The position numbers were made by a program, and so were the translations under genes. From a virus (taxonomy: Duplodnaviria > Caudoviricetes): 61,633 bases of DNA. The stretch is from positions 1 to 61,633 of the IMG/VR virus record IMGVR_UViG_3300037508_000909. One strand, given 5' to 3'. A model generated the notes under the pieces. The model did not search any database and had not been told where the DNA came from. It saw only the letters and a program-made list of their open reading frames with translations. Of the stretch, positions 42,242 to 60,642 are shown piece by piece (position 1 is the stretch's first letter; each line of letters opens with the position of its first letter).

Positions 42242-42432
42242 TGGCAAGCAACTCCATATATAAAATCCGGTCTGGCGAATATTTGATTACGCCAGAGGCA
42301 CTTGAGCCGCGAAATAAGCGGCACAACGATTACGGCTGGGCAGTGGTCGGAGCCGTGTTTATCATCGCAACGGCGACCGCAATCTACCTGCGTCATTCAT
42401 TCGACGCATTAGTGCAGGAGGTGGGCCTGTGA
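42241..42432 (+). CDS. Small membrane protein
   Basis: TM segment WAVVGAVFIIATATAIYL; GTGA coupling to next gene. Confidence 0.55.
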   Translation: MASNSIYKIRSGEYLITPEALEPRNKRHNDYGWAVVGAVFIIATATAIYLRHSFDALVQEVGL

Positions 42433-43481
42433 GCACTCTCTCCGCCAGTGAACTGGCATACAACTTCCCAGTCGTTGATGCGGCTGGGGCGAAAGCGACG
42501 GCTCTGTTTATCGCTTGGGCCAAGAACTTTGACTCAATCCTCGCGGAGCACGACGTGCTCGCTGTCGAGAGCGAGTTTCAGTTCCCACTACTCAATCCTG
42601 AGACGGGAGCCGCGTCGAAGACCTTCGTCGAGGCTGGCAAAATTGACGGTATTCTAAGGTGTAAAGAGACTGGCAAAATCAAAGTGCTGGAGCACAAAAC
42701 GACCAGCGACTCACTTGGGAGCGACAGCAATTATTGGCTCAGGCTGACGATGGACACTCAGGTTAGCAAATACCTGCTTTCCGCTCGCGCTTCAGGATAC
42801 GATTGCAACTCAGTCATTTACGACGTTGTCCGCAAGCCTCAGTACGACCTCAAACAAATCCCGATAACTGACGCGGATGGCGTCGTCATCGTTCTGGGGC
42901 CGGATGGCGAGCGCGTCCGGACGAAAGACGGCAAGCGATTCCGACAGACTGGCGACTCAGAGTTAGGCTATGTCGTACAAACGCGCCAAGAGACAATCCA
43001 CGAACTGCATCAGCGCACGCTGGATGCGCTGAATGCGGAGCCGAGTAAGTACTTGTATGTGCGTGAGATTGCGCGTCAGGACGACGAAATCCTTGAGTAC
43101 ATGGCAGATGCGTGGTGTACGTCGAAACAGATTCTGTATTTCCGCCAAAAAAATCTTTGGCCGAGAAATCCGGCAGCTTGCCTCGCATTCGGAACCTGCG
43201 AGTATTTCGACCTCTGCGCGGGCAAAGTCGGAGTTGATGGTGTCAACTTCAAGGCTCTGTCCGCATCGCCCCACAATGAATTGGAAATGGAAGTCCCTGA
43301 AGGGCAGTCGCTCCTCACGAACTCGCGCATATCCGCGCTCCGGAAATGCAGCCGCTACCATGACTTGCGGTACGAACAAAATGTCCGGTCGCTTCGCGTG
43401 GAAGACGAAGCACTCCGGCTCGGAACAATCTTCCATCAGTTAGCCGAACAATACATAAAGCAATGGATATCAAGAGCTTAA
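42429..43481 (+). CDS. PD-(D/E)XK exonuclease, Cas4/AddB-like, circularly permuted
   Basis: AVE...GKIDG...LEHKTT...QVSKY; Cys triad CLAFGTCEYFDLC. Confidence 0.85.
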   Translation: MSTLSASELAYNFPVVDAAGAKATALFIAWAKNFDSILAEHDVLAVESEFQFPLLNPETGAASKTFVEAGKIDGILRCKETGKIKVLEHKTTSDSLGSDSNYWLRLTMDTQVSKYLLSARASGYDCNSVIYDVVRKPQYDLKQIPITDADGVVIVLGPDGERVRTKDGKRFRQTGDSELGYVVQTRQETIHELHQRTLDALNAEPSKYLYVREIARQDDEILEYMADAWCTSKQILYFRQKNLWPRNPAACLAFGTCEYFDLCAGKVGVDGVNFKALSASPHNELEMEVPEGQSLLTNSRISALRKCSRYHDLRYEQNVRSLRVEDEALRLGTIFHQLAEQYIKQWISRA

Positions 43482-44320
43482 TCACAAACAAAAACGCCGA
43501 CCTGCCTCCGAGAATCTTTCTCTTTGGGCAAGAGGGTATTGGGAAGACAACATTCGGGGCTGGTGCTCCGAACCCGCTATTCATCTGCGCCGAGGACGGG
43601 TTGATGGGGCTGGAGGACAGCATCGACCGAGTCACTCCGACTGGGTTTGCTCAACTCCTCAAAGTCATCGAAAGCCTTGAGGTAGACCAGCTAGGATACA
43701 AATCAATCGTGCTCGACACTGTTGACTGGCTGGAACGCCAAATCCACAAGTTTGTTTGCACTCGCGACAATGAGCAAAACATTGAGGCTTATGGATATGG
43801 AAAGGGCTACAAGGTTGCGGAGTTGGAACTAAATCGTCTACTCAACGGGCTTACTGCTCTGCGTCAGAAGGGCTTGTGCATCATCCTGCTTGGGCACGCT
43901 CAAATCAGGACGTGCGCTCCTCCGGACGCTGAACCGTTTGACCGTTGGGAGCCGAAGGGACACAAGACCTTCGTCGGAATGATTAAGGAGTGGGCGGACG
44001 TTTGCCTGTTCGCGACTCGCGACCTGTTCCGGAGCAAGGTCAATGGGGTTGACCGGACGCTCGATGGCGGGCGCGTCGTCAAGACCAATTGGTCGCCCGC
44101 GTTCGACGCCAAAAACCGCTTGATGCTCAAAGATATCTTGGAGCTTTCTTGGGCAGCGTTTGAGGCAGACCTTGCCTCGTCAAAACTGCGCCGGACATTC
44201 CAGTCCCTGCTCGCAAAAACAACCAAGCTCTCGCCCGAAGAACGGGCAACGTGGGAAAAAGTGAATCCGCTCGCTTTGTCCGACGACAAACTAAAAGCGG
44301 GAATCGAAAAGCTCAAGTAA
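43463..44320 (+). CDS. Sak4-like AAA_24 ATPase (ssDNA annealing recombinase)
   Basis: GQEGIGKTT, SIVLDTVDWLE, GYGKGY, EWADV, AKNR. Confidence 0.85.
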   Translation: MDIKSLITNKNADLPPRIFLFGQEGIGKTTFGAGAPNPLFICAEDGLMGLEDSIDRVTPTGFAQLLKVIESLEVDQLGYKSIVLDTVDWLERQIHKFVCTRDNEQNIEAYGYGKGYKVAELELNRLLNGLTALRQKGLCIILLGHAQIRTCAPPDAEPFDRWEPKGHKTFVGMIKEWADVCLFATRDLFRSKVNGVDRTLDGGRVVKTNWSPAFDAKNRLMLKDILELSWAAFEADLASSKLRRTFQSLLAKTTKLSPEERATWEKVNPLALSDDKLKAGIEKLK

Positions 44321-44326
44321 CACAGT

Positions 44327-44878
44327 ATGAAATACATAGATGAGGCCGGAACTTATACGGCATTGGTGGTCAAACCGAAGTTGGGATGGTTTGATGTCAG
44401 CGAGAAAAAGGGCACTCCATATCTGCGCTTGCCGTTGCAAGTGATTGATGAAGAGTGCAATGGGAATCAGGTGAACCACTACATTGTGGCTGAGTTTTAC
44501 CTGACGGAGAAAACTCTGGAGCGCGTGGTGGACACATTCCGAAACGCATTTGGTGTGTCGGCGGATTTCCTCAAGCGGTTGCAGGAGGGAGATGACACCA
44601 TCATCGTCGGTCACGAATGCTCCATCGTCGTTGAACTAGAAAGCTACAACGGCAAAGAGTACGCAAAAGTGAAGTGGCTCAACAACATCAACGGGCAACC
44701 CAAGGTTTCCTCGGACGAGTTGACGAACCTAATCGCATCGCTCTCGAAGAAAGCGGTCGCATTGACTCAGGCGAAAGCGGCTCAGGCTCAGGCGGAAAGC
44801 CGTCCACGGGCTGAAGCTGCTCGGCCCAAGGCACCTGCAAAACAGGTGAGCGACGACGACGACGACATCCCGTTCTAA
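44327..44878 (+). CDS. ssb: Single-stranded DNA-binding protein (DUF669-like)
   Basis: C-terminal DDDDDIPF; follows Sak4-like gene. Confidence 0.8.
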   Translation: MKYIDEAGTYTALVVKPKLGWFDVSEKKGTPYLRLPLQVIDEECNGNQVNHYIVAEFYLTEKTLERVVDTFRNAFGVSADFLKRLQEGDDTIIVGHECSIVVELESYNGKEYAKVKWLNNINGQPKVSSDELTNLIASLSKKAVALTQAKAAQAQAESRPRAEAARPKAPAKQVSDDDDDIPF

Positions 44879-44882
44879 GCCG

Positions 44883-45290
44883 TTGCAAACAATCGAGTTC
44901 ACCTTGCCTGTGCAGCCGTTGTCCACCCAGTTTGGTGGGCGACGGCTCACCGTCGTCAAGGGTCGCATCAAATTTTTTAAGCAGCAGAAGGTGCAGAGTT
45001 GGTCTCAAGCGATTGAGTGGCATTCGCTTCCCTACCGACCGAAAGAGCCGCTCACGGGGCCGCTCGCGCTCAAGCTGGTATTTGTGTTGGCGCGACCAAA
45101 GCGAATGAGGAAAGGAGAGCGAGAGTATTGTCCGGCGCGGCCCGACTGCGACAATCTTACCAAAGGGCTACAGGATGCGTTGCGAGGCTTCTGGGCGGAT
45201 GACGCTCAGGTTTGCGAGTTGCGCGTCTCAAAATGGTACGCGGCATCCGGCGAGTTTCCGTGTATCGAAGTGAAACTCAGACAATTATGA
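44883..45290 (+). CDS. rusA: RusA-family Holliday junction resolvase
   Basis: RPDCDNLTKGLQDAL...WADDAQV. Confidence 0.9.
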   Translation: MQTIEFTLPVQPLSTQFGGRRLTVVKGRIKFFKQQKVQSWSQAIEWHSLPYRPKEPLTGPLALKLVFVLARPKRMRKGEREYCPARPDCDNLTKGLQDALRGFWADDAQVCELRVSKWYAASGEFPCIEVKLRQL

Positions 45291-46138: not shown

Positions 46139-46797
46139 GCAACGTCGAACAGGTCATCGCGAGCATGGTCGCGAGCATTGGCAGGTCGCGCTCTCAAGAG
46201 CACATTGACGAGCAGTTAACCGAAGAGCGCGAGGCAGTTATGAAGGAAGGCAAGCGGCTATTTGCCGCTGCTGAAGTCCCCTTGAGGCATAGCGAGCGGT
46301 CGGAACTTGATGGAGATGAGTGGCTTACCAAGTTTGACAACTTGAAGCGGATGCTCAACCGAGGAATGCTCGTCGTTGTGTCCGGCCCACGGGGGAGCGG
46401 TAAGACGCAACTCGCAGTCGAGTTGATACGAGCGTGCTGCATCGCGCAAAAGCCTCAGTCTGCGCTATATGCGACAGCAATGGACTTCTACCTCGACCTC
46501 AAGAGCACCTTTTCCCCCAATGCCCGCGAAACCGAGAGGGATGTCTGCCGAAGGTTCTGCGCCCCAAGGCTTTTGGTCATCGACGAAGCTCACGAACGCG
46601 CTGAAAGCGAGTGGTTTGGAAGGCTTTTGTATCATGTTGTGGACAAAAGATATGCATCACTCAAGGATACCTTGTTTGTTACAAATCAAACAAAAACGGA
46701 GTTTGCTGATGCGCTCGGAGCCTCGTCGAAGTCACGAATCCTCGAAACAGGTGGGTTTTTGACGCTCGAACAGCGCAATTACCGCAACGCCAAGTAG
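46135..46797 (+). CDS. DnaC/IstB-like helicase loader ATPase
   Basis: GPRGSGKT, LLVIDE, VVDKRY, VTNQ; follows the initiator. Confidence 0.88.
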   Translation: MSNVEQVIASMVASIGRSRSQEHIDEQLTEEREAVMKEGKRLFAAAEVPLRHSERSELDGDEWLTKFDNLKRMLNRGMLVVVSGPRGSGKTQLAVELIRACCIAQKPQSALYATAMDFYLDLKSTFSPNARETERDVCRRFCAPRLLVIDEAHERAESEWFGRLLYHVVDKRYASLKDTLFVTNQTKTEFADALGASSKSRILETGGFLTLEQRNYRNAK

Positions 46798-46810
46798 CGT
46801 AAAATCAGAG

Positions 46811-46922
46811 AGTTGTGTTTTATGACACAACTTCCTGATAAAAAATGTTTTTTTTGTGGGAGGCATGGGGCATAGTCGTTTTCAGCGGAAGCATCCGCGA
46901 CAACAACCAACCAATCAAAAAA
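46811..46922 (+). promoter_or_regulatory. Cassette leader repeat R1
   Basis: Perfect palindrome AGTTGTGT-N6-ACACAACT, A-tract, CATAGTC, hairpin GCGGA/TCCGC, A/C-rich leader. Confidence 0.8.
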
Positions 46923-47444
46923 ATGAGCAAGCACTATCAATACAAGCACGGGGTTGATACCCACGGTCGCCCCCTCGGCATATCCAGCATCTGGACTGCA
47001 AAATCATTCTCCGGCAGAGAGGTTTACCTCTGGGCAAACCGATGCGGAGAGGGAGAGGAGGATACCTTTGAAGCGGCAGTGCGGGAGGCGGAAGGGGCGT
47101 TGACACCTCCTATCGAGGTTGCCAACAACGGGCAAGGGGGCGACCAGCGCATTATCATCTGGAAGAATCCAGTGACTGGCGTGAGGCACGCGGAAACGAA
47201 CGGAGACAACTTCTGGGAGGAGCAAGACTTGGAGGGATTCCTCCTCCTCCTCGCTGAGTGTGGCATCATCGAATCCGGAGTCCGCGTCGTCCATACCGAC
47301 GACGAGTACAACGAGCACCTCGGCACGGTACTCCAGATTGATGGCGACCTCGCCCGCATCGTTTTCGACGACGGTCAGGAGGGCTGGGAGCGGCTCGATT
47401 CGCTCTACGCCGCAACGGCAAAGGATGTTATTCGGTTCGCTTAA
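46923..47444 (+). CDS. Hypothetical protein, C-terminal SH3/KOW-like
   Basis: ATG after R1; GVRVVH...GTVLQIDGDLARIVFDDG. Confidence 0.65.
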   Translation: MSKHYQYKHGVDTHGRPLGISSIWTAKSFSGREVYLWANRCGEGEEDTFEAAVREAEGALTPPIEVANNGQGGDQRIIIWKNPVTGVRHAETNGDNFWEEQDLEGFLLLLAECGIIESGVRVVHTDDEYNEHLGTVLQIDGDLARIVFDDGQEGWERLDSLYAATAKDVIRFA

Positions 47445-47448
47445 CCAA

Positions 47449-47489
47449 AACAAAGCCCCCCTCACGGGGGGCGCAACCTACCAAAAACT
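47449..47489 (+). repeat. Type-B leader hairpin repeat, copy 1
   Basis: GCCCCCC-TCAC-GGGGGGC-GCAACCTACCAAAAA. Confidence 0.75.
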
Positions 47490-47966
47490 GTGACTGCAAT
47501 ATTTGACATTCAGGGGCGGGAATACCGTCCCACCGCTGCCGACCTTACCGAGGGCTGGGAAGCCCCCGCTGGATTGCCCTTGGCCATCCGAGCCGAGGTC
47601 GAGCCTGACCTAGACCGCATCATTGGTGCGGTCATTCGACCGCTCCTCGCCCCCAACTGGCTAGGGAGGTTTGAGTCCGTGGATGGACTCGTTTTAGTCG
47701 CCTGTGTTGGCGACTCAGGTCGCACTCGCCATGCGTGGGTGCCCCTCAGCCCCCGCATCCTCGCTGCGTGCGGAGAGCAGCTTGCCCTCCTTGCCTCGGC
47801 TGAGGCATACGCCACAAAAAAAGCGGCGGCGGAAGAAACACCTGCAACTCCCGTCTCTCGCCCTCCCGCAAGCGCGTATTCCGCGCCGACGGGCGACCCG
47901 TTGCGCGATGCGTCCACTTGGGCGCAGGAGGCATATCTCGCGGGAGATTCCATTTGCGGAGACTAG
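47490..47966 (+). CDS. Hypothetical protein
   Basis: GTG start directly after a type-B repeat. Confidence 0.6.
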   Translation: MTAIFDIQGREYRPTAADLTEGWEAPAGLPLAIRAEVEPDLDRIIGAVIRPLLAPNWLGRFESVDGLVLVACVGDSGRTRHAWVPLSPRILAACGEQLALLASAEAYATKKAAAEETPATPVSRPPASAYSAPTGDPLRDASTWAQEAYLAGDSICGD

Positions 47967-47987
47967 TACTCAAATCAAAAACACACC

Positions 47988-48323
47988 GTGAAACTTCAAA
48001 ATCTTACACCACACCACATTACGTTGTTTGGCGAAAACGGAGCGGTAAACATTCCGCCGAGCGGACAGGTCGCTCGTCTAGCCGTAACCCGCGAGACGCT
48101 CGCGCCCATTGTCATCGACGGAGTTGTCCTCCCCGTCTCTCGCCCCACGTTTGGAGAAATCGTCGGGCTACCCGAACCTGAAGCCGGAGTCCTTTATGTT
48201 GTATCCGCACTTGTTGCGGAACAGGCAAAACGACAGGACGTTGTGTCGGTTGGCGAATTGCTTCGAGATGAAGCAGGTCGCGTCATCGGTGGGAGCGGAC
48301 TTTGCGCTTACACAAGCATTTGA
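47988..48323 (+). CDS. Conserved viral 'NLTPH' family protein, function unknown
   Basis: NLTPH...PPSG.VAR...GLPEPE.GV.YVVS.LV...RDE.GR.IG. Confidence 0.7.
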   Translation: MKLQNLTPHHITLFGENGAVNIPPSGQVARLAVTRETLAPIVIDGVVLPVSRPTFGEIVGLPEPEAGVLYVVSALVAEQAKRQDVVSVGELLRDEAGRVIGGSGLCAYTSI

Positions 48324-48334
48324 AAACAAAACAC

Positions 48335-48631
48335 ATGAATACACAAAACATTGAAAGAAAGCTGCTTATCGACAGCAGAAATGGAGTGTACATTCCGTAT
48401 CAGTTTGCAAAGCGTTTCATCGCAGACTCTTGGAATGTATCGAAAGAGGACGAGCAGATTTTGCTCGACGGGCCGGACAACGAAAACTACTGGGAAGCAT
48501 GGTGTTATGTGCTCGACAGCGCGTACTACTGCGACGAGTTGGGAATAAAATGGTTCTTGGTACAGGACGATGGCGACTTGTTCGCTGTTGCGGAAAACGC
48601 TGAGGATGAAGACGATGAATGCGACGATTGA
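48335..48631 (+). CDS. Acidic hypothetical protein
   Basis: GVYIP..F...GPDNENYWEAW...QDDGDLF. Confidence 0.65.
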   Translation: MNTQNIERKLLIDSRNGVYIPYQFAKRFIADSWNVSKEDEQILLDGPDNENYWEAWCYVLDSAYYCDELGIKWFLVQDDGDLFAVAENAEDEDDECDD

Positions 48632-49181
48632 AGAAACCAACAAGGGGCTGCTGCGAGCTTGGCAGCATCCGAGTCGAGGGTACTACTGGTCGCTCGCAGA
48701 GCTTGGAGGATGGGCTGAGGGCGAGGTGCAAGCCCTCAAAGCTGGTCGCAACGCTCCGCTCCGCGACATAGAGCGGTTCCCGACCGTGCAAGCCGCGAGC
48801 TTCTTTACTGCTCTTAGGCAGCTAAGTGCAAGGCTGGTAGGCACTAAAGAGTTGTATCACTACATCGATATCGTTGAGCCGGATGGAACCGTATCCGGCG
48901 TGCATACCTGTAAGTACTTTGGAAATGAAGAGTTTACGATTCGCATATGGGCGCGGAACGACGACGACTTGAAAGACGAGCACTACTTTTTGGCGCAACA
49001 CACTCTGCGAGACGTGCTTAAGTGCAAATACAACGCTAAAACGCGCAGCATTAACGTGTTGCAACACTCGATACCCGTGCGAAACGATGTCGAGTGGATT
49101 GACGAGACAGTCGAACTGCGCGACGTGAGCTTTTATATGGCTGGCGCAAGTGGCTGCATCCAAGCGTATTACCCGCTATGA
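48615..49181 (+). CDS. Hypothetical protein
   Basis: ORF whose stop is the TGA in TATGA of repeat R2. Confidence 0.6.
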   Translation: MNATIEETNKGLLRAWQHPSRGYYWSLAELGGWAEGEVQALKAGRNAPLRDIERFPTVQAASFFTALRQLSARLVGTKELYHYIDIVEPDGTVSGVHTCKYFGNEEFTIRIWARNDDDLKDEHYFLAQHTLRDVLKCKYNAKTRSINVLQHSIPVRNDVEWIDETVELRDVSFYMAGASGCIQAYYPL

Positions 49182-49284
49182 CACAACTTCCTGAGAAAAA
49201 TACTTTTCTTAGCGGGAGCGTTGTGGGAGAGTCATCTCAAGCGGGAGCCATCCCGTGAGAAGCAAAACCAAACCTACCAAAAAA
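49177..49284 (+). promoter_or_regulatory. Cassette leader repeat R2
   Basis: TATGACACAACTTCCTGAGAAAAA...AAGCGGGA/TCCCGT hairpin...AAAAAAATG. Confidence 0.8.
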
Positions 49285-49617
49285 ATGAACACATCACATA
49301 AACACTTAACTGACCTCATCAGGGGCATCCTCGCCAACGCATGGCACTCCCAAATCAACCTCTGCCTTACGGAAGAGGGGTATGACTGGATTCCGAAGGG
49401 CAATCGTTGGGAAACCCAGCACCTTTGCCTCGTTGACCAAGACGGTCTGTTGTCGGCATGGCAATCGGACGAGGAGCCGGATGCGGAAGGTCTCGCGGAA
49501 TGGGTGCAGGACAATGTCCGCGAGTGGATTCGCGGGGCAATCTCAACCGAAATTCAAGAGCATGAGCCGAGCGATGAACGCATCGCATTCCTTAACAGGC
49601 TGCTCGAAAACATCTAA
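49285..49617 (+). CDS. Hypothetical protein
   Basis: ATG after R2. Confidence 0.65.
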   Translation: MNTSHKHLTDLIRGILANAWHSQINLCLTEEGYDWIPKGNRWETQHLCLVDQDGLLSAWQSDEEPDAEGLAEWVQDNVREWIRGAISTEIQEHEPSDERIAFLNRLLENI

Positions 49618-49619
49618 TC

Positions 49620-49658
49620 AAACAAGCCCCCCTTGCGGGGGCGCAACTTACTAAAAAA
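49620..49658 (+). repeat. Type-B leader hairpin repeat, copy 2
   Basis: GCCCCCCTTGCGGGGGCGCAACTTACTAAAAAA. Confidence 0.75.
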
Positions 49659-50378
49659 ATGGAAATTACACTTCAAGAGAAGGTTGCTACCTTCAAACAA
49701 AAAGTCGAACAAACCTTCGATAACATTCAGAAGTTCAACGCTTTAATAGAGCACAAAGAACTTTACTGGTGGTGGGACGTATCTCAACGGACGTTCTGCC
49801 TCGCGAGGAAAAATGGAGTCACAACCATCCGGAAAATCAAACGCGAGTGGTTCCTCGTTGAGGACTTCGCATTCTGGTTCTCCAAATCGAAGCCCCCGAA
49901 AGAGCGGAGGGCAGCAATCCCGCTGCTCAAGTCCGATGGGGGCCGAGCAGCCGATGGATTCCGCGACGAGAAAAACGACTGCGTCGTCCGAGCGACGGCC
50001 TTTGCGAGCGGAGCAAGCTACGCCGAAGCTCACGCATTCTGGAGCGGTCTTGGTCGCAAAGCCGGAAAGGGAGTTAGCATTTTCTTCAACATCAAGGCAC
50101 TGAATAAGTGGTTGAGCCTTCGAGGCTTGCAACTCAACAGAGTTGTCAAACAAAAGAAGGTTAAGTCCGAGCGACTATCGATAAGGTATTCAATCGCTGA
50201 GAATTGCACTGTGAGGGCATTCCTCAAAAACTACGCGACGGGCACCTATTTTTGCCAAACGCGAGACCATGCATTTACCGTCAAAGACGGAGTCATTTAC
50301 GACAACTATGTTTGGTCGGATTTGCGTAGAATCGTATACGCATGGCGCGTAGACGCTTTGGACGCCACGACAAAGTAA
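49659..50378 (+). CDS. Protein with C-terminal DCVVRA...H...D domain (possible papain-like thiol enzyme)
   Basis: NDCVVRA...DHAFTVKDGVIYD. Confidence 0.6.
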   Translation: MEITLQEKVATFKQKVEQTFDNIQKFNALIEHKELYWWWDVSQRTFCLARKNGVTTIRKIKREWFLVEDFAFWFSKSKPPKERRAAIPLLKSDGGRAADGFRDEKNDCVVRATAFASGASYAEAHAFWSGLGRKAGKGVSIFFNIKALNKWLSLRGLQLNRVVKQKKVKSERLSIRYSIAENCTVRAFLKNYATGTYFCQTRDHAFTVKDGVIYDNYVWSDLRRIVYAWRVDALDATTK

Positions 50379-50397
50379 CCCCCACACACACCCAACA

Positions 50398-50754
50398 ATG
50401 AACACACTCAAAAACACACTCGCTCTTCGCAGTGCAATCAAACGCCGGAACGCGCTAAACGCCTCGCTGAGGCACCTCATCGACTCCGGCAGTGTGGAGG
50501 CAGCGCACTACTACCTAGAGGGGGCTTACTGGAGGTTTTTGGATTCCTTGGACTACTACTTTGTCAGCAATGATTTAAAGAGCGGAGACTGGGGGGTTTA
50601 CGGTCATCCGGCTTACGTCAAACTCTACGCACGGCTCAAAAACTGGTGGGCCGGATGGGACGCGGAAATACGGAAGGCTGGCCTTTCCAACGATTTTTCG
50701 CTATTGAGCGAGCGGTATTACATCTTCGGGCAACAGGCAAAGAGTTGCGCGTAA
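50398..50754 (+). CDS. Hypothetical protein
   Basis: 118 aa with A/C-rich leader. Confidence 0.6.
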   Translation: MNTLKNTLALRSAIKRRNALNASLRHLIDSGSVEAAHYYLEGAYWRFLDSLDYYFVSNDLKSGDWGVYGHPAYVKLYARLKNWWAGWDAEIRKAGLSNDFSLLSERYYIFGQQAKSCA

Positions 50755-50759
50755 ACCCC

Positions 50760-50833
50760 TTGGGGCCAGCATGGTGTGCAGGGAGACCCTGCAACGGTGG
50801 TTACATTTTCCACCAGTGAAACACTGGCTCCAA
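50760..50833 (+). ncRNA. Candidate small structured RNA (three-way junction)
   Basis: TTGGGGCCAG/CTGGCTCCAA closing stem, with TGCAGGG/CCCTGCA and GGTGG/CCACC inner hairpins. Confidence 0.5.
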
Positions 50834-50858
50834 CCTCACAAACAACTGAAACAAAATG

Positions 50859-50990
50859 ACTTGTTGGCTATGACACAAGTTCCTGAGAAAAATACTTTTC
50901 TTTTGAGTGGGACTAGCCGATACCTCTTTTAAGCGGACGCTGTTGTCCGCGAGAAACTGCCCCCTTCGGGGGGCGCAACCAAACCAAAAA
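50859..50990 (+). promoter_or_regulatory. Cassette leader repeat R3 with embedded type-B hairpin (copy 3)
   Basis: ACTTGTTG-N6-ACACAAGT; GCCGATAC; GCGGAC/GTCCGC; GCCCCCTTCGGGGGGCGCAACC. Confidence 0.8.
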
Positions 50991-51554
50991 ATGAGCAAAA
51001 AATTGTACGGCTACAGCATAGCGAACGCGGGCGAGGAACCCGCATGGTTTACCACAAAGAAAGCGGCATTGGAGTTTGCGCTCCAGTGCGGCTGGGACAA
51101 CGTCCAATTGGAAACCGCTGACGCGGATGATGTTGACCCCAGCGACATTTTGGACAGGCCGAGTCCGACCAAGGCCGAGGAACTCGATGCACTCCAAGAG
51201 TTTATCGACTCTTACCACGATGACAGCTACCTAAAGGGCTGGCTGAGTCAGGTTTACGCCGAGGTGGAGCGCAACATCCGCTCGGACATTTACCCGACGG
51301 TTTCGCTCGCCGAGACCGACGCGGAGTGCCGGAGGCGATTGGCCGACTGCGACGCTGTCATCGAGCAGCGTAAAGTCAACGCGCAGAGGATTATCGACGC
51401 TGACCGTGTAGTCGCGCAACGGCAACACGCTGCGATAATCGCTGAGGCTGAAAGAGTTGCAGCGAAGCTGCGCGACGAGGCTGCGCGGAAACGCGCTGAA
51501 GTCCGCAACACGCTCCACGGTCTCCGGAGCCTGTTGGATTCGTTGGAGGAGTAG
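50991..51554 (+). CDS. Hypothetical coiled-coil protein
   Basis: ATG after R3. Confidence 0.65.
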   Translation: MSKKLYGYSIANAGEEPAWFTTKKAALEFALQCGWDNVQLETADADDVDPSDILDRPSPTKAEELDALQEFIDSYHDDSYLKGWLSQVYAEVERNIRSDIYPTVSLAETDAECRRRLADCDAVIEQRKVNAQRIIDADRVVAQRQHAAIIAEAERVAAKLRDEAARKRAEVRNTLHGLRSLLDSLEE

Positions 51555-51613
51555 GGGCACACCCATTGCGCCTCATGCAAATCGCGTGAGGCGCAAATAA
51601 CTGAAAAACAAAG

Positions 51614-51731
51614 CATTGCGTCGTATGACACAACTTCCTGAGAAAAAAACTTTTCTTTTGAGCGGAGTTGACCGATATTCCTTTTAAGCGGGAGCTATCC
51701 CGTGAGAAGCAAAACCAAACCACTAAAAAAA
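51614..51731 (+). promoter_or_regulatory. Cassette leader repeat R4
   Basis: TTGCGT-N6-ACACAA; ACCGATATTC; GCGGGA/TCCCGT. Confidence 0.8.
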
Positions 51732-52127
51732 ATGAACAAAGTAAAAATCACGGCAGCGAATATTGAAGTCTTGGAAGGTGAGTTGTATCGCGTTCTGGGT
51801 GAAGACGAAGAGCTTTTCGTCTTCGACGTTGAAATCGGCGCAGTCATCAACGGTCGTCGGTTTGTCCTGCGCGATTATGTGCAGAAGGGGGCGCGGTTCG
51901 CGGAGTACGACGCGGATGCGGATTGCGGCGGGTTTTATTACGTCAATCACGACGCAAAGGCTGCTGCCATCCGGTTCGCCGAGCGCATCGTCCGGCGGGG
52001 GGTAATCGACCTCGACCGTTGGGACGAGGTTGAGGAGTCGGCTCCTCTTGAGGCACGACTGGCAGCGTATGCAGCCGAGGAGGCCAACGAGCGGGCGGGA
52101 TTCGGAGGTTGGGGACTGGGCTGGTAA
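51732..52127 (+). CDS. Hypothetical acidic protein
   Basis: ATG after R4. Confidence 0.65.
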   Translation: MNKVKITAANIEVLEGELYRVLGEDEELFVFDVEIGAVINGRRFVLRDYVQKGARFAEYDADADCGGFYYVNHDAKAAAIRFAERIVRRGVIDLDRWDEVEESAPLEARLAAYAAEEANERAGFGGWGLGW

Positions 52128-52144
52128 CATCATCAAAAATCATC

Positions 52145-52183
52145 AACAGCCCCCCTCGCGGGGGGCGCAACCTACCAAAAAAA
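52145..52183 (+). repeat. Type-B leader hairpin repeat, copy 4
   Basis: GCCCCCC-TCGC-GGGGGGC-GCAACCTACCAAAAAAA. Confidence 0.75.
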
Positions 52184-52804
52184 ATGAGCAAAACAGCATA
52201 CGAAAAAGCAGCAACGGGCGAGTGGGTGGATTCTGCCGACCTCGCGAAATTAGTCCGGAACGCACTCAAGAAAGCCTTCAGGGGCATCAAATTCTCCGTC
52301 CGCTCCAAAGGCTGCGGAATCAGCGTCCGGTGGCAGGACGGCCCTCCTGCGGAGGAGGTGCGGTGGATTGCCGACGACTATCGCACGGCGGGGTTTGATG
52401 GCAGCATCGACCTTGCGTACAGCTACAGTTTATGGCTCTACGCGGACGGGAGCGCGTCGGTCGCGCACTCCGAGGGTACTGTCGGCTCAAACGGGTACGC
52501 TCCGGAAATCATCGGCTCCTCGCTCCGCGCTGACGGGGTTCTCTGCACGCAGGTCTCGCGAGTTTACATATCATGCTATCGCGACCTCAGCCGTGCTGCT
52601 TACGAGCGCGGATACGAGCGAGCCGTGAACCGTTACGACCTCCCGCCGCACTCAATCGAATACCGCGAGAGCGGATTCGTCTGCCAGCCGGACGTTTGGG
52701 TCGAGTCGCACCGCACTTGGCTTTCGTGCATCTTCCTGCGCGAGTCCGAGAAAGCCGCTGATGAGCAGTGGTTTGCAGCCAACAGGAGGCTGGTTGAGGC
52801 TTAA
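52184..52804 (+). CDS. LPD29-like (large polyvalent protein-associated domain) standalone protein
   Basis: AKLVRNALKKAFRGIKFSVRS...ISVRWQDGP...FDGSID. Confidence 0.7.
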   Translation: MSKTAYEKAATGEWVDSADLAKLVRNALKKAFRGIKFSVRSKGCGISVRWQDGPPAEEVRWIADDYRTAGFDGSIDLAYSYSLWLYADGSASVAHSEGTVGSNGYAPEIIGSSLRADGVLCTQVSRVYISCYRDLSRAAYERGYERAVNRYDLPPHSIEYRESGFVCQPDVWVESHRTWLSCIFLRESEKAADEQWFAANRRLVEA

Positions 52805-52899
52805 AAGCAAAACCCCCCCGCCCGACCTCATTCGGGCGAGGGGGCAGTTAGTCCCCAAACAATGAAAGCCGGACTCTAACGGTTTATGACACAGGCGCA

Positions 52900-53154
52900 A
52901 TGGAAAAAACTTTTAAAAACGGGGCAAAGGTGATTGAAGTCCTCAAAAATGGCTACGCTCTGGGCACAATCAGCGTAAGTGAGGGAAAGACAAAGGTTTA
53001 CCACGCGCACATTTACGGCACGGGAAACACGCACACTCGATTTGAGTCCGAGGACGATGCAAAAAACTTTCTCCTGCAATCCATTGAGCAGAAGCGAGTT
53101 GCGAGATATGACACAACTTCGCGTGAAAAAAACTTTTCTTCTTGGGGCGGGTAG
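52900..53154 (+). CDS. Hypothetical protein whose 3' end runs into R5
   Basis: 84-aa ORF preceded by a truncated TATGACACA core at 52885. Confidence 0.5.
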   Translation: MEKTFKNGAKVIEVLKNGYALGTISVSEGKTKVYHAHIYGTGNTHTRFESEDDAKNFLLQSIEQKRVARYDTTSREKNFSSWGG

Positions 53155-53209
53155 CCGATATTCCTAGCAAGCGGGCAGTGCCCCGCGAAAACACTAACCT
53201 ACCAAAAAA
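53097..53209 (+). promoter_or_regulatory. Cassette leader repeat R5
   Basis: AGTTGCGA-N6-ACACAACT; GCCGATATTC; GCGGG/CCCGC. Confidence 0.8.
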
Positions 53210-54226
53210 ATGAACAATCCCATCCAAGCAGCATTCAAGCAGGTCAATGTCCGCGACCTGCAATTCGTCTCACTGGTCACGACCATTGAGACCGGAATCC
53301 TCGGCGAGACCGAGCAGGTCAGCCACATCATTGATGACGAGGCATATGAGCGGTTTGAGGCCCACGGTTTTTACAACCCGTGGGGCACTGGCTTCGTTAA
53401 CGACCGCACGCATTGCGACTGTTGCGGGCACCGAGTCACCTACGTTTGCGTCGTCGGTGCGCCCAACAACCGCTTCTTTGGCGTGGGTCGCGATTGTTTT
53501 ACCGCGCTCGGTTATGACGCGCAGTCAGTCGAATCCGCGTCCATCGAAGTTGTCCGCCGGAGCAAGCGGCAACGGGAAAACGCTGCTCGCGAACGGAAAA
53601 TCGCTGAGATTGCCCAGCAAAACGCTGGGTTCGCTGAGGCATACGCTGCCGCTCGCAAAACGACGGGCATCGCGGGAGACATCGCCGACAAAATCGCTCG
53701 GTACGGCAACCCCTCCGAGAAACAGGTCGCGTTCCTCATACGCTGGCACGCAGAGAGGCTTACCGCTCTGGAGCGCGTAAAATCCTCGCCGCTGGCCGCT
53801 GGCAAGGCATCAGTGCAGGGCACAGTTGCCTCCGCTAAATTCCGCCGCGTTAAGGCGTTCTACGGGGGCGGAGACGAGGCAAAACTCGCGCTGGTTGTCG
53901 CTCTGGAAAGCGGCCACAAAGTGTATGTAAAAGTCGCGCTCGGATGCCCGTTTGATGTTACTGAGGGGATTTTCCCTGCCGACTTGCCCGTCCCCTCGTT
54001 GGTCGGTGCGCCCGTGAGCTTTACGGCTACGCTTGAGCCGTCCACGGACGACCCGACATTCCTATTCGCAAAACGCGCTGCGAAGTTGGAGGTCAACGGT
54101 TTAGCGGTCACAAAACCGAAATTCTCGGACAGGGGGGTTGTCGGGCAGTGGGCCGATGAGGCAAATCGAGTCCACGACGAAGAGGTCGCCCGTCGATTGG
54201 AGGCGCAGGAAGTATCTGTCGGGTAG
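53210..54226 (+). CDS. Zn-finger protein, possibly with an OB-like C-terminal part
   Basis: CDCCGH...VGRDC; SEKQ motif. Confidence 0.7.
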   Translation: MNNPIQAAFKQVNVRDLQFVSLVTTIETGILGETEQVSHIIDDEAYERFEAHGFYNPWGTGFVNDRTHCDCCGHRVTYVCVVGAPNNRFFGVGRDCFTALGYDAQSVESASIEVVRRSKRQRENAARERKIAEIAQQNAGFAEAYAAARKTTGIAGDIADKIARYGNPSEKQVAFLIRWHAERLTALERVKSSPLAAGKASVQGTVASAKFRRVKAFYGGGDEAKLALVVALESGHKVYVKVALGCPFDVTEGIFPADLPVPSLVGAPVSFTATLEPSTDDPTFLFAKRAAKLEVNGLAVTKPKFSDRGVVGQWADEANRVHDEEVARRLEAQEVSVG

Positions 54227-54261
54227 CGTGTTGCGGGGCGGGGGACAACTCCCTCGCCCCG

Positions 54262-54366
54262 TATGACACAACTTCCTGAGAAAAAAACTTTAAAACTCAG
54301 GAGAGTTGACCGATATTCATATCAAGCGGACGCAGTTGTCCGCGAAACCAAAACCTACCTAAAAAA
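54262..54366 (+). promoter_or_regulatory. Cassette leader repeat R6
   Basis: TATGACACAACTTCCTGAG...ACCGATATTC...GCGGAC/GTCCGC; preceded by a GC hairpin at 54233-54262. Confidence 0.8.
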
Positions 54367-55170
54367 ATGAGCACCAATAGCACCAATAATAATCGGGCAA
54401 CGCACTACGGCACCTGCCAACTTTGTGGGTCGTTGCAAAAAGCGAACAGAAAAACGAATCGTTTGGCCGACCACGGCTACACGTTGGCCTATGGCTTCCA
54501 AGCGGGAACTTGCAGAGGCTCAAGCAGACTCCCCTTCGAGGTTTGCAAAGCCTTCGCGGAGGAAGTTTTGGCCCTATGCAAAAAGCAGGTTGCCGAGTTT
54601 GTGGAAACCCCTCGGCCTGAGAGCACGGCTAAAAACCGCTGGGACAAATGCCCCAAAATCACTGCATGGCAACTGGCTCGGAGTCAGCAAGCTGGGCGTA
54701 AAAACTACATTTTTTGGGCGGAGCCTCGGCTTGCAAACTGGGCACCCAGCGCACAGAAAACAGTTAGGGAGGTTGAGGCAGTCGAGGCATCGGCTAAGGC
54801 AACCCGCACTGGTATCCGTGCTCTCTCTGGGGCAGTGAAACTCGCGAAACGCGACCTATCCAAGTTTGGGGAGCATTTCCAGAAGGTCTTGGAAAAGACT
54901 ATCAATGGGCATTTGTACGATGAACAACAAGCCTTTTGGCGCGTAGCGATTGCCGCAAAAAATTACGACTTGGACGGAAGGCTTCCGGTTTGGCCGAAAG
55001 AGTCGGAAATCGTTGACATCCCGTACTTTACATCGAACTCCGTTGCCAAGCTCGCGAGAATTGCTCGCAATAGCGGCAATGCCGAGTTGATTGCCGGAGC
55101 AGAAAGGCTCGAAAAACTCTCCGAGGTTTACGAGGGAGCGAGAAAAGCATACGCAGCCGCAAAGGCATAA
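54367..55170 (+). CDS. Zn-binding phage protein
   Basis: GTCQLCG...LADHGY...GTCRGS. Confidence 0.7.
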   Translation: MSTNSTNNNRATHYGTCQLCGSLQKANRKTNRLADHGYTLAYGFQAGTCRGSSRLPFEVCKAFAEEVLALCKKQVAEFVETPRPESTAKNRWDKCPKITAWQLARSQQAGRKNYIFWAEPRLANWAPSAQKTVREVEAVEASAKATRTGIRALSGAVKLAKRDLSKFGEHFQKVLEKTINGHLYDEQQAFWRVAIAAKNYDLDGRLPVWPKESEIVDIPYFTSNSVAKLARIARNSGNAELIAGAERLEKLSEVYEGARKAYAAAKA

Positions 55171-55208
55171 GCAGCAGAGGGCGAGGGGGATAGCAACCCC
55201 TCGCTCCG

Positions 55209-55312
55209 TATGACACAAGTTTCCCAACAAAAATACTTTTCTTTCGGCCAACTTTGGCCGATATTCATATCAAGCGGGCGCGGTCGCCCGCGAAACTCAA
55301 CTACTCAAAAAA
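55209..55312 (+). promoter_or_regulatory. Cassette leader repeat R7
   Basis: TATGACACAAGT...GCCGATATTC...GCGGGCG/CGCCCGC; preceded by a GC hairpin at 55181-55204. Confidence 0.8.
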
Positions 55313-56122
55313 ATGTACACACTCGAACAACTCAGCAACAGTCAGGTAGTCGGATTCTGGTCAAGGCCCGCCGCGAGCCTCGCGGAAGTTAACCCCGACG
55401 CATACAACGCCGCGCTCGCGGACGCTCCCCGCGTCGAAGGCATCGGCTTCTGCTCTCACTGCGGGCGGGACATCGCCCATAACGTCATCATCCGCGATTT
55501 TCGCGGAAAGCTGCAGGTCATCGGCGAGACCTGCGCCGAGAAGGTTGGTATCTCGCCCGCTGAGATTGAGGCAGCGAAGGAGGAGCGCAGGGAGGCTGCT
55601 GAGGCCGCTCGTTGGGCACGCCAACAGGCCGAGGCTGACAGCAGCGTGTTCACTTCGGGAAAATACGCGGGGCAAAAAATCGCAGACGTGCTCGCGTCCG
55701 ACGAGCGGTATTGCCTCTGGTTCGAGACCAACTTTGGCGGGCAGCGCAGCGCAAACGGCATCGCCGCTAAAACAATCGCAAACCTCCTCGCTCCGGCTCG
55801 CGCTGAGGCCGCTGCTGAGGCCGCTGCACGCGCCGAGCAGCACGCTGAGTTGCTCGCTGAGTTGCGCTCAGTGCGGGTTTTGGTGACTCAGGTTGAGCAA
55901 AATGGTCGCTGGTATCCGCTCGCAAACCCCTATCATCGTGACTCTAAAAGCTGCGCCGAACTGGCAAACGCCATCGAGCGCGGGTGCGCCCCCGCCGGAT
56001 GGGTTGTCGAGGCAGCAGCCAAAGACCTCGCCAAGGCCGCTGGGATTGGCCGTGCTCGCAAGGCCAAGGACGCATTCATCGCCGCGTTTTATGCGCGGCT
56101 CCCTAGCTTCATCAATGGATAA
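55313..56122 (+). CDS. Zn-finger plus DUF3820/ExoX C-terminal-like domain protein
   Basis: CSHCGR...GETC; FTSGKYAGQKIADV...YCLW. Confidence 0.7.
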   Translation: MYTLEQLSNSQVVGFWSRPAASLAEVNPDAYNAALADAPRVEGIGFCSHCGRDIAHNVIIRDFRGKLQVIGETCAEKVGISPAEIEAAKEERREAAEAARWARQQAEADSSVFTSGKYAGQKIADVLASDERYCLWFETNFGGQRSANGIAAKTIANLLAPARAEAAAEAAARAEQHAELLAELRSVRVLVTQVEQNGRWYPLANPYHRDSKSCAELANAIERGCAPAGWVVEAAAKDLAKAAGIGRARKAKDAFIAAFYARLPSFING

Positions 56123-56474
56123 AACGCCCATCATCAACAAAATATGGGCCAACAACCCGTCGCTGTCCGACCTCGCCCAAAAGGCGGGGTCTGGCTGCGG
56201 TGCAGCGTTGGCAGCACTGGCAAAAAGCGCAACCATCCGAGGGGGGAGCTACCTCTCGCCGGAGGAGTGGCGCGTAGTCTCCGAGTGGCAGGGCGAGCAG
56301 CCCATGCGAGCGGTCGCAATCGCAACCGTCCGCGCACTCCACAACCTCGTCATTGCAGGGGCAGGGACGAGGGAGCAACAGGACGCTGCTCTCGACCTTG
56401 CGGAGTCACTGCTCAACGATATGGCCCGAAAACAAACAGAACAGCCCCAAAACGGCGACGAAGAAACAAAGTAG
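56115..56474 (+). CDS. Hypothetical protein
   Basis: ATG overlaps the previous stop region. Confidence 0.55.
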   Translation: MDKTPIINKIWANNPSLSDLAQKAGSGCGAALAALAKSATIRGGSYLSPEEWRVVSEWQGEQPMRAVAIATVRALHNLVIAGAGTREQQDAALDLAESLLNDMARKQTEQPQNGDEETK

Positions 56475-56475
56475 T

Positions 56476-56937
56476 ATGAATACAGCGGACACATATAAAA
56501 AACAGGACGACGAGGGCAACGAACTTGTTGTCGAAAAAGGCAAAGTGAAGCTCCGGTTAGCAAGCGAGAATTTTGCTCGCAACCTTGGCACGATTGTTGG
56601 CTCAACGCTTCACGTCGAGCGGGACTCGTTTCGACACCTCCACCACAAGAGCAACTCGTATGGGTTCAACTACAACCTGCTCAAGTTGCCGTTGTTCCGG
56701 AATGTCGTTGTAAAGGTCAATGGCTCAGACTTTTACAAGGTTCCGAAAGAAACCATCATCGAAAAGGGGAAAATCATGTTCTTCAAGAAAACAAAAGCGG
56801 GCAGTTTCGAGGTGCAGATTTTCTTTAACCGCAACGACTTAGAGCGGTTCAAGTGCGACCAATCACAACTGGACGACGATGAGGCGAGTGAGGCATTCAT
56901 CGCGGAACTTATAAAGCATTCGGACAAAGCAGTATAA
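56476..56937 (+). CDS. Hypothetical basic protein
   Basis: ATG 1 nt after the previous stop. Confidence 0.6.
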   Translation: MNTADTYKKQDDEGNELVVEKGKVKLRLASENFARNLGTIVGSTLHVERDSFRHLHHKSNSYGFNYNLLKLPLFRNVVVKVNGSDFYKVPKETIIEKGKIMFFKKTKAGSFEVQIFFNRNDLERFKCDQSQLDDDEASEAFIAELIKHSDKAV

Positions 56938-56960
56938 CATTAACAATCAAATAAAAACCA

Positions 56961-57218
56961 ATGATTAAACATAACGAATTACCCCACGGGGATGTTGACC
57001 ACCCCGAACACTACAACCTCCACCCAAGTGGAATTGAATGTATCGATGTGGCTGAGGGGTTTAACTTTAACCTTGGGAACGTCATTAAATACGTTTGGCG
57101 GGCAGGTCTTAAAGGTGACACTGTTATCGACTTACGCAAAGCGAGGTGTTATTTGCAACGCGAAATCGACCGTCTTGAAATGGTTAAGGTTCAGGGAGAA
57201 AGGAAGGACTCGAAATGA
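56961..57218 (+). CDS. DUF3310 family protein (T7 gp1.7-like nucleotide kinase-related)
   Basis: VDHPEHY...IECID...FNLGNVIKYVWRAG.K...DLRKA..YL. Confidence 0.85.
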   Translation: MIKHNELPHGDVDHPEHYNLHPSGIECIDVAEGFNFNLGNVIKYVWRAGLKGDTVIDLRKARCYLQREIDRLEMVKVQGERKDSK

Positions 57219-57484
57219 GCGGACGATTTGCTTGCAAGGTATGCGGTCAATTCCATGAGCCGCATTGTATGTCGTCGCCTATCAATCCTCCGCTGGCGCA
57301 TGGATTTATCACATTGCCGATTGATTGGAAGAGGGAACGCATTTCGATGGCGCGTGCGGCGATGCAGGGGATTGTCCACGATTTTCCGGTGAAGCAAACA
57401 GGAGGGCCAGAGATAGTTGCAATGATTGCACTCCAAGTCGCCGACGCGCTGATTGCCGAGCTTAAGAAGGAGGTGCAGGCATGA
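57215..57484 (+). CDS. Hypothetical protein
   Basis: ARAAMQGI...IALQVADALIAELK; ATGA overlaps. Confidence 0.65.
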   Translation: MSGRFACKVCGQFHEPHCMSSPINPPLAHGFITLPIDWKRERISMARAAMQGIVHDFPVKQTGGPEIVAMIALQVADALIAELKKEVQA

Positions 57485-57798
57485 GCATTGAAGAAATCGA
57501 GCAACAGGTCGTCGCGTGGGCTGATGCGCGGGGCATACTTATGCATTCCGACTCCAAAGCGCAGACATTGAAGGCGGTTAGCGAAATGGGCGAGCTGGCC
57601 GATGCCATCATCAAGGGTGACTGCGATGATGCTGTAGACGCGATTGGCGATGTGATAGTTTGTCTCACAAACCTGTGCGCCATGAACGGCTGGAACCTGC
57701 ATTACTGCTATGCGAGGGCATGGAACACAATCAAACACCGAACAGGCAAGATGTCCGCGAGCGGGGCGTTCGTGAAAGATGAGGAGGTGCAGCCGTGA
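57481..57798 (+). CDS. MazG-like nucleotide pyrophosphohydrolase (copy 2)
   Basis: WADARGI...KAVSEMGELADA...DAIGDVIVCL...RTGKM. Confidence 0.85.
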   Translation: MSIEEIEQQVVAWADARGILMHSDSKAQTLKAVSEMGELADAIIKGDCDDAVDAIGDVIVCLTNLCAMNGWNLHYCYARAWNTIKHRTGKMSASGAFVKDEEVQP

Positions 57799-60566: not shown

Positions 60567-60642
60567 GGGATTGTAGCTCAGAGGTTAGAGCGTGCGACTC
60601 ATAATCGCTTGGTCGCGGGTTCGATTCCCGCCAATCCCACCA
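60567..60642 (+). tRNA. tRNA with CAU anticodon, most likely tRNA-Ile2 (lysidine-modified, reads AUA)
   Basis: Cloverleaf GGGATTG/CAATCCC, D arm GCTC/GAGC, GCGA-CTCATAA-TCGC, T loop TTCGATT, encoded CCA; anticodon arm resembles bacterial Ile2 tRNAs and lacks fMet features. Confidence 0.92.

Follow-up and report, generated by a model that had tools for sequence, protein, structure and literature searches.

The stretch of phage DNA analysed here, called the window below, is the whole of IMG/VR virus record IMGVR_UViG_3300037508_000909 (61,633 bp). Between 46.8 and 55.3 kb it carries seven full copies and one stub of a repeat of 105–125 nt, all within 8.5 kb, and each full copy ends at the start codon of the gene downstream of it. 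The best explanation of these repeats, to which we give a probability of roughly 0.7, is that they are expression leaders similar to the PeSLs of T4-type phages (early promoter plus stem-loop motifs, compared below), and that recombination between them shuffles gene cassettes. A family of repeats, covariation within a hairpin, block mosaicism among the copies, and exchange, gain or loss of cassettes at leader junctions in related phages are all observed.

Leader repeats in the window

The leaders (R1 to R7 and the stub) stand in direct orientation, one every 0.75–2.4 kb, as follows:

46821..46925, + strand: leader R1, from the 10-mer through the ATG of gene 46923-47444
49177..49287, + strand: leader R2, before gene 49285-49617; left end of the exchanged cassette
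50869..50993, + strand: leader R3, before gene 50991-51554; a long leader joined without a gap to a short one of the GC-hairpin type
51624..51734, + strand: leader R4, before gene 51732-52127
52885..52902, + strand: leader stub, a one-mismatch copy of the 10-mer immediately before the ATG of open reading frame (ORF) 52900-53154
53107..53212, + strand: leader R5, before gene 53210-54226
54262..54369, + strand: leader R6, before gene 54367-55170
55209..55315, + strand: leader R7, before gene 55313-56122, with a 1-nt insertion in the 5' block

That these repeats are real is clear from copy counts far above chance. The 24-mer at the 5' end has six matches at ≤3 mismatches with none expected, and the 8-mer ATGACACA has eight, every one on the + strand, where 1.74 would be expected and none of 100 shuffles gives as many. 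The 10-mer TATGACACAA occurs exactly at seven places; its one-mismatch matches are the stub at 52885 and a site at 58663 that is not leader-like. A previous sequence-only reading had described the repeats over 49177-55312, a span that covers R2 to R7 and leaves R1, at 46821, outside. Its two statements on overlap with upstream genes hold: R2 supplies the stop of ORF 48570-49181, whose TGA (49179-49181) lies inside the R2 10-mer, and the last 48 nt of ORF 52900-53154 lie inside R5. BLASTP finds no paralogy among the cassette genes 53210, 54367 and 55313 (E values 9.9 and 1.3).

R4 (51624-51651) and R6 (54262-54289) share an exact 28-31-mer, and short-read assemblies of the phage fragment there. 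An ATG occupies leader positions 2–4 in all eight copies (46822, 49178, 50870, 51625, 52886, 53108, 54263 and 55210) and opens 15–60 codons in each. The frames of the full copies R2 to R6 begin MTQ followed by L or V, those of R3, R4 and R5 encode similar peptides of 19–20 residues, and that of R6 has a TGA that overlaps the ATG of its gene. We considered and rejected a conserved leader peptide; it is unlikely because one-base indels shift the frame in R7 and in the leaders of two relatives, and no A-rich start context precedes this ATG.

Structure of the leaders

Nineteen leaders, from the window and six related contigs, define a leader of four parts. The first is the invariant 10-mer TATGACACAA followed by a conserved A-run, three bases and a T-run; conservation sets in abruptly at the 10-mer, and nothing upstream of it is common to the copies. 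The second is a variable middle of about 15 nt, followed by a moderately conserved CCGATATTC-type block. The third is a hairpin (hairpin 2) between AAGCGG and CCG(C/T)GA flanks, which lies about 63–64 nt from the 10-mer in nearly all copies, and the fourth is a G-poor, A/C-rich tail that terminates in A6-8ATG.

Hairpin 2 folds in all 12 of its distinct versions, with 5–7 pairs and no non-canonical pair. Its pair 5 is A-T in four versions and G-C in eight; pair 6 is A-T in two, C-G in seven and unpaired in three; and the closing pair (pair 1) is G-C in seven and G-T in five. When 5' and 3' halves are swapped among versions, 0 of 20000 permutations reach the stability of the cognate hairpins. 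The G-T pairs suggest that it is the + strand that folds, hence RNA or + strand DNA. These results come from single-sequence folds and anchored pair counts; RNAalifold gave no structure on a MAFFT alignment of the leaders, in which the hairpin columns are misaligned. A longer inverted repeat (hairpin 1) surrounds the A-run/T-run block, and bases 8–20 pair with bases 36–48 in several copies; its strength is uneven (−14 to −19 kcal/mol in some copies and −3 to −5 in others), and it is a frequent but non-obligatory feature of the leaders.

Two further kinds of hairpin accompany the leaders. GC-rich hairpins with a terminator-like look, none of which has a + strand T-run, stand directly upstream of four of the copies, and a short leader type lies between genes within cassettes:

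51568-51594, + strand: GC-rich hairpin upstream of R4
52812-52845, + strand: GC-rich hairpin upstream of the stub
54235..54260, + strand: GC-rich hairpin directly upstream of R6
about 55179-55207, + strand: GC-rich hairpin upstream of R7
47456..47478, + strand: short leader type, a C-run/G-run hairpin and then CGCAAC

Copies of the short leader, which has a 4-nt hairpin loop, CGCAAC and the same A/C-rich tail and precedes the second gene inside cassettes, are found at 47456, 49627, 50960 and 52150, and also in relatives (L093, L114, L125, L127 and L128). The short leader sites score as minus-strand terminators because an A-run precedes them.

The A6-8ATG start context is found at nine genes, all of them within 46.9–55.3 kb. 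At positions −15 to −1 of the genes in the leader region only 10 of 225 bases are G, and a Shine-Dalgarno-like tetramer is present at only 11 of the 59 phage genes. Rfam covariance models run over 41000-61633 gave nothing above E = 0.5 except a tRNA and its antisense echo.

Cassette exchange and indels at leaders in related phages

Eight structural differences (D1 to D8) separate the window from its relatives. D1 concerns the following segment:

49177..50878, + strand: cassette A, which comprises R2, three genes (49285-49617, 49659-50378, 50398-50754), a structured spacer and R3 as far as its base 10

Over this segment the window and metagenome contig Ga0129333_10001782 differ at 2 of 1702 sites, and the three encoded proteins are 100%, 99.6% and 100% identical. 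The shared segment begins with the first base of R2 and ends with base 10 of R3; nothing aligns to its left, and the next leader, on the right, first differs at its position 11. The proteins that the contig encodes to the left of the segment are 92% (DnaC-like), 73%, 61%, 60% and 50% identical to those of the window, and those to the right are 70%, 66%, 58%, 67% and 64% identical. Directly upstream Ga0129333_10001782 retains a cassette of its own (D2), made up of a leader, three genes and a diverged structured spacer, in which two genes are 45% and 39% identical to their cassette A homologues. This unit of 1226 nt has leader starts at both sides and is absent from the window.

The spacer of cassette A (50755-50868, after gene 50398-50754) itself has the look of a branched structured RNA, with an outer 10-bp stem that encloses two hairpins. 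A second copy, 78% identical, lies behind the diverged homologue in a relative (L126:1886-1972) and retains 21 of 21 predicted pairs, four of them via changes on both sides. The folding energy of the spacer is unremarkable (z = −1.2), and it has no Rfam or tRNA match.

A second contig, SXGQ01251546.1, is 94–99% identical to the window in most genes. Its R3 ortholog is 73% identical over positions 1–62 (D3), in surroundings where the 61 nt upstream of R3 are 96.7% identical and the hairpin region 92.6%; positions 11–56, the 5' half of the leader, have been replaced, and the replaced part resembles R6 and R4. For comparison, the orthologs of R5, R6 and R7 differ at 2, 2 and 9 positions, respectively. 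The slot that follows the R3-type leader and precedes gene 50991 with its short hairpin leader is known in three states (D4 and D8): it is empty in the window, holds an 82-aa gene in SXGQ01251546.1 and holds an unrelated 66-aa gene in Ga0129333_10001782. SXGQ01251546.1 also lacks the window unit 51560-52141, which is R4 and its gene (D5); here the junctions, immediately behind a stop codon and about 10 nt upstream of a short GC hairpin, are not in a long leader. Contig SXGQ01471174.1 has an extra 140-aa gene between the R1 leader and gene 46923 (D6), joined within the A/C-rich tail of about 17 nt plus start codon that is common to long and short leaders. Finally, Ga0129333_10001782 lacks R5 and gene 53210 (D7), and its single leader there also lacks the 10-mer. 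The stub, which consists of only the first 9–10 leader bases, is found in both relatives too.

Thus, at least one junction falls in a long leader in six of the eight differences, and three classes of junction (5' block, hairpin neighbourhood and start-codon leader) are found in one array. The earlier proposal of crossovers within the repeats that shuffle cassettes is supported by the cassette exchange, the leader-bounded indels and the chimeric R3 ortholog; repeat-bounded indels do occur among relatives, and the blocks of the leaders, considered next, are not congruent. Neither circles nor alternative joints were seen over 46000-57500 in assembled contigs of four lake-water runs, and such contigs cannot show rare forms.

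Mosaic relationships among the leaders

All six shared blocks that the sequence-only reading had listed (R2+R4, R3+R6, R4+R6, R6+R7, R3+R4 and R3+R5) are present as written, and its view of the leaders as mosaics of each other is borne out: the nearest neighbour of a copy switches from block to block, and this mosaicism is above chance. For example, the closest copy to R6 is R4 across the middle block (0.71), then R7, at full identity, across the block after it (1.00), and R3 across the hairpin (0.95); for R4 it is R6 across the middle, and R2 for both hairpin (0.94) and tail (0.78). Of the 496 pairs of informative sites among the seven window copies, 268 cannot be fitted to a single tree. In a pairwise-homoplasy test with permuted site order, 2, 18 and 1165 of 5000 permutations reached the observed value for these seven copies with windows of 5, 10 and 15 sites, and 0, 0 and 117 of 5000 did so for all 19 leaders. 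Tests of parent-parent-child triplets gave 6/100000 and 10/100000 for the best two of 105, or about 0.006 and 0.01 after multiplication by 105.

Function of the leaders

We propose that each leader supplies three things to the gene downstream. The invariant 10-mer and the A-run/T-run block would most likely be promoter elements or an activator site; the hairpin would probably lie at or near the 5' end of the mRNA; and the G-depleted, A/C-rich region ending in A6-8ATG would be a translation start region that works without a Shine-Dalgarno sequence. Promoter activity and a start site for the leaders are predicted from their sequence, and they can be placed in two ways. In the first (a), the 10-mer would contain a near-consensus first hexamer, ATGACA, with a weak second hexamer 16–17 nt downstream in the T-run; a sigma-70 consensus scan flags these hexamers in R7 only. 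In the second (b), the two hexamers would be the T-run, as a weak first one, and the GATATT-type block, with the A-run in the role of upstream element. The transcript would then begin at the AAGCGG hairpin, which would make hairpin 2 a stabilising structure at the 5' end of the RNA and leave the 10-mer as an upstream site for a factor.

The shuffling would arise by homologous or short-homology recombination between leaders, which could delete, duplicate, insert or swap cassettes and leave chimeric leaders behind. The leaders offer themselves for this because the same 30–110 nt recur in direct orientation and also in co-infecting relatives, and every product of such an event would retain its expression signals. 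The acting recombinase may be the set encoded by the phage itself, 1.5 kb upstream of the leader array, or that of the host, and a circular intermediate may be involved. The phage set, identified by PHROG and Pfam matches, is:

42429..45290, + strand: recombination module (exonuclease, Sak4-like, SSB, RusA-like)
42429-43481, + strand: exonuclease gene
43463-44320, + strand: Sak4-like annealing protein gene
44327-44878, + strand: SSB gene
44883-45290, + strand: RusA-like resolvase gene

Phage single-strand-annealing recombinases of the Sak4 family are described as acting with their SSB, and are linked to the recombination of short or diverged sequences and to phage mosaicism (PMC5928155, PMC5499656, PMC8093625).

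Several points weigh against the interpretation as PeSL-like, recombining expression leaders. On the side of expression, the two hexamer assignments (a) and (b) fit about equally, the sigma-70 scan flags one of seven leaders (R7; its consensus may not be that of this phage's host), and promoter-like sites in the leader region are not above shuffles (4 against 4.4). The cognate arms of hairpin 1 are not significantly better than swapped arms (428/5000). On the side of recombination, two of the eight structural differences have their junctions beside the short GC hairpin leader, outside the long leaders, and the key relative, Ga0129333_10001782, is one metagenome contig, with no second contig that spans its two junctions. 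The site-order and triplet tests can be inflated by hairpin covariation and by block-wise functional constraint. Those tests alone would therefore not prove recombination, because neighbouring sites that are paired or constrained also agree, and for the same reason the stronger case for recombination comes from the relatives.

Alternative explanations

The alternative that survives best, which we regard as possible although clearly the lesser prospect, is that the leaders have no promoter and are RNA-level modules in one long transcript, with processing or stabilising hairpins, a shared translation start and a 10-mer that is a recognition site for RNA or protein. Recombination at leaders would still occur, as a by-product. 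The weak match to the sigma-70 consensus and the G-T pairs of hairpin 2, which point to the + strand, agree with this idea, as does the pairing of bases 8–20 with 36–48 in several copies, which would be absent from a transcript that starts inside the leader; in addition, the 10-mer of the stub at 52885 is only 15 nt from a start codon, too close for a −35 role at that gene. On the other hand, R4, the stub, R6 and R7 each have a GC hairpin directly in front that resembles a unit boundary, the long hairpin shows no significant covariation, the sharp onset of conservation at the 10-mer is what a DNA site would give, and no Rfam family matches.

Site-specific exchange, in which an enzyme of phage or host nicks or cuts the invariant 10-mer and cassettes move from 10-mer to 10-mer, possibly as circles, seems to us improbable, and it draws on a clustering of discontinuities at the 3' edge of the 10-mer: the right end of the exchanged cassette and the left end of the replaced part of R3 both lie within leader positions 1–10, one relative's leader lacks exactly these 10 nt, and the stubs retain only these 9–10 nt. 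It is opposed by a scan of 69 window ORFs, which found no family of integrases, transposases, HUH enzymes or homing endonucleases, and by the other junctions, which lie in the A/C-rich tail or beside GC hairpins. Moreover, the shared 5' block is about 35 nt long, and two junctions in its first 10 nt are not unlikely (about 0.08). Were it true, this would be a phage-borne gene capture system analogous to integrons, with its own expression leader and a so far unrecognised enzyme, and cassettes bounded by the 10-mer might travel as packaged circles.

It is unlikely that the near-identical cassette of Ga0129333_10001782 arose in assembly, as a chimera in which two co-occurring strains were joined at the repeats. 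Contigs of four runs that are identical to the window do break at R4 and R6, but the leader types that meet at D1 share only 17 nt (left) and 10 nt (right) before the first difference, and usual assembly word lengths exceed 10–17 nt. The other six differences are also independent of the D1 junctions of this contig.

Divergence of the leaders by point mutation alone, with no recombination among them and with blocks that owe their likeness to common constraint or convergence, deserves even less credence. Functional sub-elements and compensatory changes in hairpins can mimic mosaic signals, but blocks of 16–36 nt are identical or one base apart between copies that otherwise differ strongly, the orthologous R3 is 73% identical between flanks of 93–97%, and the 1702-nt cassette has 2 differences in a background of 50–92% identity. 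This alternative is already contradicted because of the D1 cassette and the replaced R3. Last, an integron or attC-type cassette array, suggested by small unknown genes in an array separated by imperfect inverted repeats, has next to no probability, given no tyrosine recombinase family among the ORFs scanned, repeats that stand 5' of each gene and end at its start codon, and cassettes that bring their own expression signals.

Comparison with known systems

PeSLs are described as motifs of about 100 bp, with an early promoter and a stem-loop, upstream of ORFans in the hyperplastic regions of T4-type phages; the stem-loop often lies between or over the promoter boxes and has G-T pairs, and the motif ends at the ribosome-binding site and start codon (PMC2839356). 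They are reported to mediate indels and replacements and to form mini-circles (PMC2839356, PMC4122927). As far as these descriptions go, the present leaders share with them a repeated intergenic motif of about 100 bp in a variable region, directly upstream of genes without known homologues; a stem-loop with G-T pairs in or near the promoter-like part (hairpin 2 folds in 12 of 12 versions here); a motif whose end is the start codon of the gene behind it; indels and replacements that map to the motifs when close relatives are compared (here six of eight differences); and homologous recombination between motifs as the proposed mechanism. On the same descriptions they differ in that their sequence is unrelated, and the phage is not T4-like: its genome of about 62 kb has all genes on one strand and encodes a recombinase of the Sak4 type and a polyvalent protein of 3700 aa. 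PeSLs are described with sigma-70 hexamers of the consensus type, an AT-rich upstream region and a Shine-Dalgarno sequence, whereas the hexamers here are weak or can be assigned in two ways, beside an A-run, and the start region has no Shine-Dalgarno sequence; promoter and terminator activity and mini-circles of PeSLs are experimental, whereas the present leaders are known from sequence alone. There are no T4-like genes among the PHROG matches of the window. By analogy, then, the leaders appear to work like PeSLs, and they are not members of that family by descent. A literature search on PeSLs in phages since 2014 gave papers which, by title and abstract, deal with T4-like or jumbo phages, one cyanophage, a review of haloarchaeal viruses and an unrelated review; neither this search nor the few related ones made turned up a report for the family to which the window belongs.

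Tailed viruses of haloarchaea offer a parallel. The HGTV-1 motif is described as promoter-like, with a TATA-like box and an inverted repeat, and a role in regulation and shuffling has been suggested for it (PMC3950731); the intergenic repeats of halovirus HF2 are reported to carry promoters (PMC8707807). According to these accounts the likeness is that of a repeated motif with a promoter-like part and an inverted repeat that precedes many ORFs, whereas hosts and promoter type are archaeal and there is no relation in sequence; the resemblance considered here is one of motif description.

The sequence-only reading had spoken of integron-like exchange without an integrase. The second half stands, since no IntI-type or other integrase family was found among 69 window ORFs compared with PHROGs, 22 of them also with Pfam; the likeness to integrons is an analogy only. 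It lies in an array of small accessory genes with structured repeats between them, and in the gain, loss and reordering of cassettes. In integrons the IntI recombinase is required, most cassettes have no promoter and the attC site follows the gene at its 3' side, whereas the leaders here are 5' expression leaders that end at the downstream start codon, with no attC at the 3' end. Boundary or linker sequences of lambdoid phages and start-associated repeats of some mycobacteriophages are short conserved sequences that have been proposed to guide modular exchange or expression, but they are much shorter than these leaders or lack the composite of hairpin and leader.

Two other candidates were rejected. 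A transposon-like repeat of the type of miniature inverted-repeat transposable elements does not fit, as there are no terminal inverted repeats or flanking duplications in the eight copies; the leader ends are the 10-mer (5') and the A-run and ATG (3'). Hairpin promoters read by an N4-type virion RNA polymerase were also set aside: the 3700-aa ORF of the window has ART-PolyVal and GNAT domains and shows no polymerase in PHROG, PDB sequence or Pfam searches, although a very remote polymerase fold could escape these.

The phage and its relatives

The virus record has an estimated completeness of 98%, and no end repeats were found in it. All long ORFs of the phage are on the + strand. By PHROG and Pfam matches the structural and lysis genes occupy the genome up to about 30 kb, and are followed by the ORF just mentioned:

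30122-41224, + strand: ORF of the 3700-aa polyvalent protein, with Pfam matches to the ADP-ribosyltransferase domain ART-PolyVal (residues 2511-2646) and to GNAT (residues 1571-1634)

This ORF has no match in PHROG or PDB sequence searches, and its product, a polyvalent protein, is probably injected. Genes for a primosomal protein and for a DnaC-like loader, the latter ending at 46797, complete the recombination and replication module. Of the approximately 15 small genes at 46.9–56.1 kb none has a named function, and domain matches among them are limited to LPD29, in 52184-52804, and to a few PHROGs whose function is unknown.

Outside the leader region, three successive gene junctions at 57460-58120 carry GAGGAGGTGCAG and then GC or CC directly before the next start codon. 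These GAGGAGGTGCAG junctions are a separate Shine-Dalgarno-type repeat, in a run of small genes that includes a MazG-like gene. A + strand tRNA-Met gene (60567-60642, 73 bits in Rfam) adjoins the small terminase-like gene, and an ARAGORN call of a tRNA-Pro on the minus strand (5620-5711), inside ORF 3404-5821, is probably false.

The phage belongs to a large uncultivated family, since its capsid-like protein (8502-9707) has hundreds of relatives, at about 66–70% identity, on contigs of about 60–65 kb. The window stretch itself is found near word-for-word in twenty lake-water runs dated 2020–2024. A 70% identical capsid gene is present on one contig of a Verrucomicrobiota (Chthoniobacter) metagenome-assembled genome, which is too weak a link for assignment of a host or a promoter type.

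The leaders have a much narrower distribution than the family. A scan of Joint Genome Institute (JGI) metagenome contigs gave 40 loci, 12 of which, on six contigs, match the window; the other 28 are chance matches in AT-rich DNA, as the hairpin motif is present in 0 of 28. The 24-mer at ≤3 mismatches is present in 0 of 25 relatives with 66–87% capsid identity, and in the equivalent regions of four such relatives self-comparison found no direct repeat pair, whereas the window has 21. Both motif and direct repeats are thus absent from the family members examined, and the leader family is restricted to a sublineage. Megablast of 46800-56200 against GenBank phages found no match, two motif scans of IMG/VR found no match outside the window's own record, and searches of IMG/VR for protein loci with the DnaC-like protein and with gene 49659-50378 found none. 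Gene 53210 is present in 0 of 24 complete relatives and gene 49659, weakly, in 4 of 24, and none of seven cassette genes specific to relatives matches PHROGs or Pfam. The cassette genes are thus accessory and sporadic among relatives.

Implications

The cleanest result of this analysis is a natural exchange of a three-gene cassette that is cut at the same 10-mer on both sides. The kind of element is already known, and the phage lineage is new: the idea of PeSL-type "mobile regulatory cassettes" is extended from T4-type coliphages to an unrelated, abundant and uncultivated lineage of freshwater phages. The leaders also break short-read assemblies. In addition, they mark the sites at which these phages trade accessory genes, possibly genes for host takeover or anti-defence.

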